This document shows, piece by piece, positions 55,484-57,021 of a stretch of 64,000 nt of DNA (positions are counted from its first letter, which is position 1; each line of letters begins with the position of its first letter). A program made the translations under genes and the position numbers. Origin of the DNA: Escherichia coli (GTDB taxonomy: Bacteria > Pseudomonadota > Gammaproteobacteria > Enterobacterales > Enterobacteriaceae); the NCBI RefSeq assembly GCF_016026235.1, contig NZ_CP065613.1; one strand, 5' to 3'. Below the pieces are notes generated by a model. That model saw nothing but the letters and a program-made list of their open reading frames with translations. It searched no databases and was not told where the DNA came from.

Positions 55484-57021
55484 ATGCAAACGAGTGATAC
55501 CCGCGCGTTACCGCTACTTTGCGCCCGCTCGGTTTATAAACAGTATTCAGGGGTCAATGTCCTGAAAGGCATCGATTTTACGTTGCATCAGGGGGAGGTC
55601 CACGCCCTGCTCGGCGGCAATGGTGCCGGTAAATCGACGTTAATGAAGATTATTGCCGGTATTACCCCTGCTGATAGCGGTACGCTGGAGATTGGGGGCA
55701 GCAACTACACCAGATTAACGCCAGTTCATGCTCATCAGCTGGGTATTTATCTCGTTCCCCAGGAACCGCTGCTTTTCCCAAGCCTGTCGATAAAAGAAAA
55801 CATCCTGTTTGGGCTGGCAAAAAAACAGCTCTCCATGCAGAAAATGAAGAACTTGCTGGCGGCGCTGGGCTGCCAGTTTGATCTGCATAGTCTGGCAGGA
55901 TCGCTGGATGTCGCCGATCGCCAAATGGTGGAAATCCTCCGCGGGCTGATGCGCGACTCGCGGATTCTGATCCTCGATGAACCTACCGCCTCGCTTACCC
56001 CTGCGGAAACCGAACGCTTGTTTAGTCGCTTGCAAGAGCTGCTTGCTACTGGCGTGGGTATTGTTTTTATCTCGCATAAGCTGCCGGAAATTCGCCAGAT
56101 TGCCGATCGAATTAGCGTGATGCGCGACGGAACCATCGCCTTAAGCGGCAAAACCAGCGAACTGTCTACCGACGACATTATTCAGGCCATCACGCCAGTG
56201 GTACGGGAAAAATCGCTCTCTGCCAGCCAAAAATTATGGCTGGAGTTACCTGGTAACCGCCCACAACATGCCGCCGGAACGCCGGTGCTGACACTGGAAA
56301 ATCTGACTGGCGAAGGTTTCAGGAATGTCAGCCTGAGACGCTCAATGCCGGAGAAATTCTGGGTCTGGCTGGGCTGGTGGGTGCCGGACGCACAGAACTG
56401 GCCGAGACGCTCTATGGTCTACGTACTTTGCGTGGCGGACGCATTATGCTGAATGATAAAGAGATCAATAGATTCTCCACTGGAGAACGTTTACTGCGCG
56501 GTCTGGTTTATCTGCCGGAAGATCGCCAGTCATCCGGACTGAATCTCGATGCTTCGCTGGCGTGGAATGTCTGCGCCCTTACTCATAACCTTCGTGGATT
56601 CTGGGCGAAAACCGCGAAAGATAATGCCACCCTGGAACGATATCGTCGGGCGCTGAATATTAAATTTAACCAACCGGAACAAGCTGCACGGACATTATCC
56701 GGTGGCAACCAGCAAAAAATCCTCATTGCCAAATGCCTGGAAGCCTCGCCGCAAGTATTGATAGTCGATGAGCCGACGCGCGGCGTGGATGTCTCGGCCC
56801 GTAATGATATCTACCAACTGTTGCGCAGCATCGCCGCACAGAATGTGGCTGTGCTGCTTATCTCCTCTGATCTGGAAGAGATCGAACTGATGGCAGATCG
56901 TGTGTATGTGATGCATCAGGGCGAAATTACCCACTCTGCACTGACCGGGCGCGATATTAATGTCGAGACTATTATGCGCGTTGCCTTCGGCGATAGTCAG
57001 CGTCAGGAGGCGTCATGCTGA
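55484..57021 (+). pseudogene. lsrA: AI-2 ABC importer ATPase LsrA with a +2-bp frameshift at about 56335-56338
   Basis: NBD1 in frame 1 to ...FRNVSL, then out-of-frame junk ([15 protein letters not shown]...) to a stop at 56452. NBD2 Walker A ([15 protein letters not shown]) is in another frame running to 57021. Span is 1538 nt, which is 511 codons plus stop plus 2. Confidence 0.8.

Follow-up and report, generated by a model that had tools for sequence, protein, structure and literature searches.

The lsrA gene, which encodes the ATPase of the LsrACDB importer of the quorum signal AI-2, is broken by a frameshift in a 64,000-nucleotide stretch of Escherichia coli DNA (NCBI RefSeq assembly GCF_016026235.1, contig NZ_CP065613.1), referred to here as the window. 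The broken gene is very probably a genuine, vertically inherited frameshift pseudogene of one E. coli clone and one step in a recurrent loss of AI-2 reception. It is an ordinary further allele, in a further lineage, of the lsr loss that has already been published, and it brings no new mechanism. The eight lsr genes of the window are collinear with K-12 b1511–b1518 and keep the operon order, with lsrK and lsrR divergent from lsrA-C-D-B-F-G. The features of the locus are as follows.

52611–54203, minus strand: lsrK, kinase, full length, divergent from lsrA.
54282–55235, minus strand: lsrR, repressor, full length, divergent from lsrA.
55484–56452, plus strand: 5′ ORF of lsrA, 322 aa, with a complete first nucleotide-binding domain, 284 native and 38 out-of-frame residues, and a TGA stop (from the ORF, Pfam, and NCBIfam).
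56335–56338, plus strand: GAGA, arisen by tandem duplication of one GA (+2 nt), the frameshifting lesion of lsrA at codon 285 (from alignments with intact lsrA; the same insertion is present in loci L003–L007).
56339–57021, plus strand: 3′ remnant of lsrA, containing the second nucleotide-binding domain; its frame is entered by a −1 or +2 shift and is open from 56257 (from the ORF and Pfam).
57015–58043, plus strand: lsrC, permease, 342 aa, intact (from the ORF and comparison with K-12).
58043–59037, plus strand: lsrD, permease, frameshifted by another +2 duplication (from alignment with intact lsrD).
59049–60071, plus strand: lsrB, of K-12 length.
60098–60973, plus strand: lsrF, of K-12 length.
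60997–61287, plus strand: lsrG, of K-12 length.

The lsrA gene occupies positions 55484–57021 and measures 1538 nt, or 512 codons plus 2 nt, as a preliminary description made from the window alone had counted. Every match listed among 4170 full-length lsrA hits in complete E. coli genomes spans 1536 nt, and none of those listed is 100% identical to the window gene. Nucleotide identity to K-12 lsrA (b1513) is 98.4%. Alignment with the intact lsrA genes of FDAARGOS_943, EC1515, and K-12 revealed a single indel across the gene, an extra GA at 56335–56336 or, equally, at 56337–56338; this is the sole length difference, and it confirms the +2-bp frameshift that the preliminary description had proposed. 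Specifically, CCTGAGACGC in the window corresponds to CCTGACGC in intact lsrA genes, and positions 56333–56340 are CTGAGACG in the window versus CTGACG in the three intact genes. The insertion is not a multiple of three relative to intact orthologues and leads to a premature stop at 56450–56452, as expected of a frameshift pseudogene. The lesion is established by direct sequence comparison, so chance is not an issue.

The frameshift had been ascribed to a GAGA dinucleotide repeat. GAGA is present in the window, but the wild type has a single GA and no pre-existing repeat, so GAGA arose by tandem duplication rather than by expansion of an earlier tract. The duplication most likely arose by replication slippage. 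A separate change lies 6 nt upstream of the lsrA ATG, where position 55478 carries a derived G-to-A substitution in the Shine-Dalgarno region (GGGGG to GGGAG); the A is common to the window and locus L004, and K-12, FDAARGOS_943, and L014 have G.

Shifting the frame at codon 285 would end the importer ATPase at 322 aa, without its second nucleotide-binding domain. The frame-1 ORF (55484–56452) has exactly the length that had been predicted for the truncated protein. The assignment of the first nucleotide-binding domain to frame 1, and of the second-domain Walker A to the frame restored by deleting 2 nt, was likewise correct. The preliminary description had placed the shift between these two domains; their frames are as it stated, but the site lies inside the second ABC_tran domain and not in a linker. 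It falls within the first ~10 residues of that domain and ~10 residues ahead of its P-loop, and the 322-aa product ends just before the P-loop. An ORF starting at native residue 298 aligns with the Pfam ABC_tran profile from position 21 onward.

Profile searches separate the encoded product from the protein that the gene once specified. In Pfam, the repaired protein contains two ABC_tran stretches and the encoded product only one (res. 27–169). The repaired 511-aa translation scores 956.9 bits against the NCBIfam LsrA equivalog NF011967 (profile positions 1–510), and the encoded 322-aa product scores 515.6 bits (positions 1–285 of 510), below the curated cut-off of 586 bits. The encoded product thus has neither a full-length equivalog match to NF011967 at 586 bits nor two ABC_tran domains in one polypeptide. 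Compared with the intact K-12 LsrA (b1513; NF011967), the window gene sits in the same neighborhood, with lsrK and lsrR divergent and lsrCDBFG downstream, and its repaired translation matches end to end; unlike K-12 LsrA, its product stops at 322 aa, has no second domain, and falls below the equivalog cut-off. By its sequence, the locus is lsrA by descent, yet it encodes no LsrA.

LsrA belongs to the ribose-type (CUT2) ABC ATPase family, whose members carry two fused domains, like RbsA. Because the family has two fused domains, the 322-aa product should lack activity, and the clone should lose high-affinity Lsr-dependent AI-2 uptake with it. Knockouts of lsrA in K-12 remove AI-2 less efficiently (Brito et al. 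2013, PMC3595036), and AI-2 also enters slowly by non-Lsr routes (PMC3595036), so uptake would be reduced, not abolished. Residual function of the remaining lsr genes may persist, since lsrB, lsrF, lsrG, lsrK, lsrR, and lsrC are still full length.

The damage extends beyond lsrA itself. The start of lsrC overlaps the normal lsrA stop (ATGCTGA), and with this arrangement the early stop in lsrA has probably abolished translational coupling between the two genes. Expression of lsrC would probably be lowered as a result, through loss of coupling combined with polarity. The preliminary description had missed both the wider gene decay of the lineage and a second lesion, in lsrD, where TTAGTG has become TTAGAGTG at 58867–58868, again by a +2 tandem duplication. 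The lsrD product consists of 275 native and 31 aberrant residues, in a 306-aa ORF that ends at 58963. The relative L004 carries the lsrA lesion, but its lsrD is wild type, its 1289-aa autotransporter is intact, and it has no IS110 insertion. The lsrA lesion alongside an intact lsrD places the two events in order: read from these alleles, lsrA broke before lsrD, whose lesion is younger and would have arisen in a sub-branch of the clone.

The same lsrA allele recurs in other assemblies. Over 18.5 kb, the window is 100% identical to contig UGFA01000002.1 of assembly GCA_900449985.1, a record labelled E. coli in which the truncated LsrA is protein STL95479.1. At least 23 contigs encode precisely this 322-aa product; its carriers are the NCBI assemblies GCA_900449985.1 and GCA_902503985.1 and the Logan assemblies ERR926423, SRR17652795, and SRR13627083. 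The five loci that we fetched (two from NCBI and three from Logan assemblies of separate runs) all have the extra GA and differ from the window by 0–5 SNPs and other indels. Because these loci share the GA yet differ by SNPs and indels, the carriers are distinct isolates of a single clone, which makes a sequencing error very unlikely. A 61-mer spanning the insertion point seeded 3037 complete E. coli genomes, with ~1160 other lsrA-bearing complete genomes falling outside the seeding; the GA insertion is absent from all 3037, in which the best identity of 96.7% corresponds to the gap.

That an error of sequencing or assembly introduced the extra GA into a gene still intact in the living strain is extremely improbable. 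A frameshift seen in only one assembly is often an error, and the 100% match of the window is a single long-contig assembly. Against this reading, the lesion, compared at the assembly level, is reproduced in at least five independently produced assemblies from different projects and runs, and the number of contigs encoding the exact product points the same way. Such errors concentrate in homopolymers, and the lesion site is not one; the second lesion, in lsrD, is also common to a nested subset of the same isolates. An allele common to independent assemblies leads us to reject the artefact and, by proxy, answers the preliminary description's own test of reads lacking the extra GA. A pseudogene could also be one in name only if the frameshift were bypassed, by −1 programmed ribosomal frameshifting, by transcriptional slippage, or by two halves that work as separate polypeptides, and this too we regard as highly improbable. 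Both frames are open over 193 nt (56257–56449), and a −1 shift anywhere in this interval would yield a near full-length protein. However, the 193-nt overlap contains no X_XXY_YYZ slippery heptamer and no homopolymer of five or more nucleotides. Its sole restart codons are GTG 56377, TTG 56428, and ATG 56446, all inside or after the second-domain P-loop. Gene callers predict a 191-aa product from ATG 56446, and reinitiation there is physically plausible, as this codon overlaps the premature stop (ATGCTGA); but a C-terminal fragment from any of the three codons would lack Walker A and the first strands. With no slippery site, and with restarts only inside or after the P-loop, the overlap scan offers nothing usable, and recoding or a working pair of half-proteins is unsupported. 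In addition, the frame change is not conserved, being absent from all other lsrA genes examined, and the later lsrD frameshift suggests that selection on the transporter was already relaxed.

A reversible phase-variation switch for AI-2 uptake, with GAGA as the switching element, is hardly credible either. The lesion is a changed count of a dinucleotide unit, and a lineage unrelated to the clone has undergone an independent −2 contraction of GAGA only 14 nt downstream: loci L014–L016 (Logan ERR1822268, GCA_035820575.1, and a bile-metagenome contig) read GGAA in place of GGAGAA at alignment columns 867–868. However, high slippage rates need tracts far longer than two repeat units, and two GA units are all that the window has. 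Rather than a long tract that varies among members of the clone, we found the same state in six of the six carrier sequences examined, with no revertants. The second frameshift, in lsrD, would also make reversion useless. The reading that we retain is that of an inherited lsrA pseudogene.

Inactivation of lsr genes by small lesions is well documented. In a survey of 44 E. coli and Shigella genomes, 34 lsr pseudogenes were recorded, of which 6 are small indels, usually of 1–2 bp (Brito et al. 2013, Genome Biol Evol, PMC3595036). The same study counted at least eight independent inactivations of the lsr operon, with rapid decay once the first hit had occurred, and held that neutrality does not explain so fast a loss; none of the Shigella and AIEC strains had a full lsr operon (P = 0.048) (PMC3595036). 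Our observations resemble that decay in the operon affected, the small-indel class of lesion, the multiple hits, their independence between close relatives, and the link to invasive or intracellular pathovars. Unlike the published survey, the present data show that lsrA was broken before lsrD and include a sister branch whose lsr lesions are different. We found no description of the GA duplication at codon 285, or of its clone, in the text of Brito et al. 2013 (supplementary table aside). A literature search by assembly and run accessions returned nothing, and the sole paper naming FDAARGOS_943 is on an unrelated topic.

Other E. coli lineages have lsrA truncations of their own, among them proteins P0015 (323 aa) and P0002 (278 aa), which result from frameshifts in the same part of the gene. 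The 323-aa form is the product of the −2 contraction described above and is listed on 40 contigs. It differs from the window allele in lineage (98.7% lsrA identity), in site, and in the sign of the indel (−2 versus +2).

The only near-identical complete genome is FDAARGOS_943 (NZ_CP065615.1), at 99.9% identity versus ~99.0% for the next best. Its lsrA and lsrD are intact, and its lsr damage lies elsewhere: lsrK has a −1 frameshift and a 3′ deletion that reaches into hipA, beside an IS1A element, and lsrC has a 15-bp in-frame deletion. Further pseudogenes of the region in FDAARGOS_943 result from frameshifts in maeA and pqqL, internal stops in ddpB, digH, and ydeN, and insertions of IS1A and IS2. 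FDAARGOS_943 also carries a 155-kb plasmid (NZ_CP065616.1) with ipaH9.8, ospG, ospC2, sepA, virK, capU, and phoC; the annotation of the ~150 kb examined includes no mxi-spa genes. Judged by its gene content, this is a pINV-type invasion plasmid, and its presence suggests that the lineage is of enteroinvasive type, an assignment that extends to the window's own strain only through its sister's plasmid. The clone is part of a gene-decaying lineage, and in its sister, the genome with the pINV-type plasmid, lsrK and lsrC were damaged independently.

Genome decay in Shigella and enteroinvasive E. coli consists of IS expansion and pseudogene accumulation. The region resembles this pattern in its IS2 and IS110 insertions, deletions, nonsense codons, and frameshifts, and in having a relative with a pINV-type plasmid; unlike that pattern, IS density within the window is modest, and pINV is known from FDAARGOS_943 only. 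We located the other lesions by projecting K-12 genes onto the window. In the region 13280–15952, ddpF contains a nonsense codon that stops the protein prematurely at codon 119, and a deletion at ~15166 joins ddpD (from nt 20) to dosC (nt 787), removing ddpC, ddpB, ddpA, ddpX, and dosP. FDAARGOS_943 retains every one of these genes, but its ddpB has an internal stop. The fimbrial adhesin gene ydeQ (36356–37686) is interrupted by a ~1.3-kb insertion containing an ORF at 36770–37675; FDAARGOS_943 shares this insertion (annotated there as IS2), which thus predates the split of the two genomes. An autotransporter gene of the yneO / ECSE_1600 family (~45161–51917, minus strand) has an IS110-family insertion (ISEc20-like) at 46748–48196, with a transposase ORF at 46975–48171. 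A 17-bp deletion at 49923/49924 splits this gene further, into ORFs 48185–49939 and 49887–51917. The 17-bp deletion is absent from loci L004–L006, and in L004 the IS110-family element is absent as well. In the yddK region (711–2042), a 443-aa ORF in the window corresponds to the 318-aa yddK of K-12 plus the yddJ pseudogene that follows it; here the 1-nt difference at 1094 suggests a lesion in K-12, not in the window.

Over 43.9 kb, seven small indels separate the window from FDAARGOS_943, and four of them fall in lsr (post hoc binomial P = 0.027). SNPs between the two genomes are not enriched there (6 of 25, P = 0.33). A general signature of +2 duplications was considered and set aside: the clone has two derived small indels in the 43.9 kb, both in lsr, which is too few.

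These counts bear on the cause of the lesion rather than on its nature. Loss of AI-2 uptake may have been selected in an invasive intracellular lifestyle instead of arising by neutral decay; we consider this possible but doubtful. Two sister branches were hit in lsr independently, each twice. In one, lsrA and then lsrD acquired a +2 duplication each; in the other, lsrK suffered a frameshift and a deletion, and lsrC a 15-bp in-frame deletion. The concentration of small indels in lsr without a matching enrichment of SNPs points in the same direction, as do the absence of a full operon from Shigella and AIEC and the argument from speed made by Brito et al. On the other hand, the indel statistic is post hoc and comes from a small sample. 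The same 64 kb contains many unrelated lesions in both genomes, as relaxed selection or drift would produce, and since frameshifts survive in dispensable genes only, neutrality itself predicts that further hits will cluster once a first has occurred. Selection and drift are inseparable with the present data.

The sister branches would each have lost AI-2 reception. If selection rather than drift was responsible, they would form a dated natural series for the pathoadaptive loss of AI-2 uptake in intracellular E. coli, a proposal that we hold to be rather unlikely as things stand. If it is true, the pattern that Brito et al. described for Shigella and AIEC would extend to EIEC. The nested lesions (lsrA, lsrD, and further hits nearby), together with an independently damaged sister, offer a small, clean data point on whether selection or neutral decay underlies lsr loss in invasive E. 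coli. The chief use of the finding is in annotation and in predicting the phenotype of the strain. As luxS is universal in E. coli (Brito et al., PMC3595036), the clone should produce AI-2 but should not import it efficiently, and would thus be a producer that does not consume the signal.
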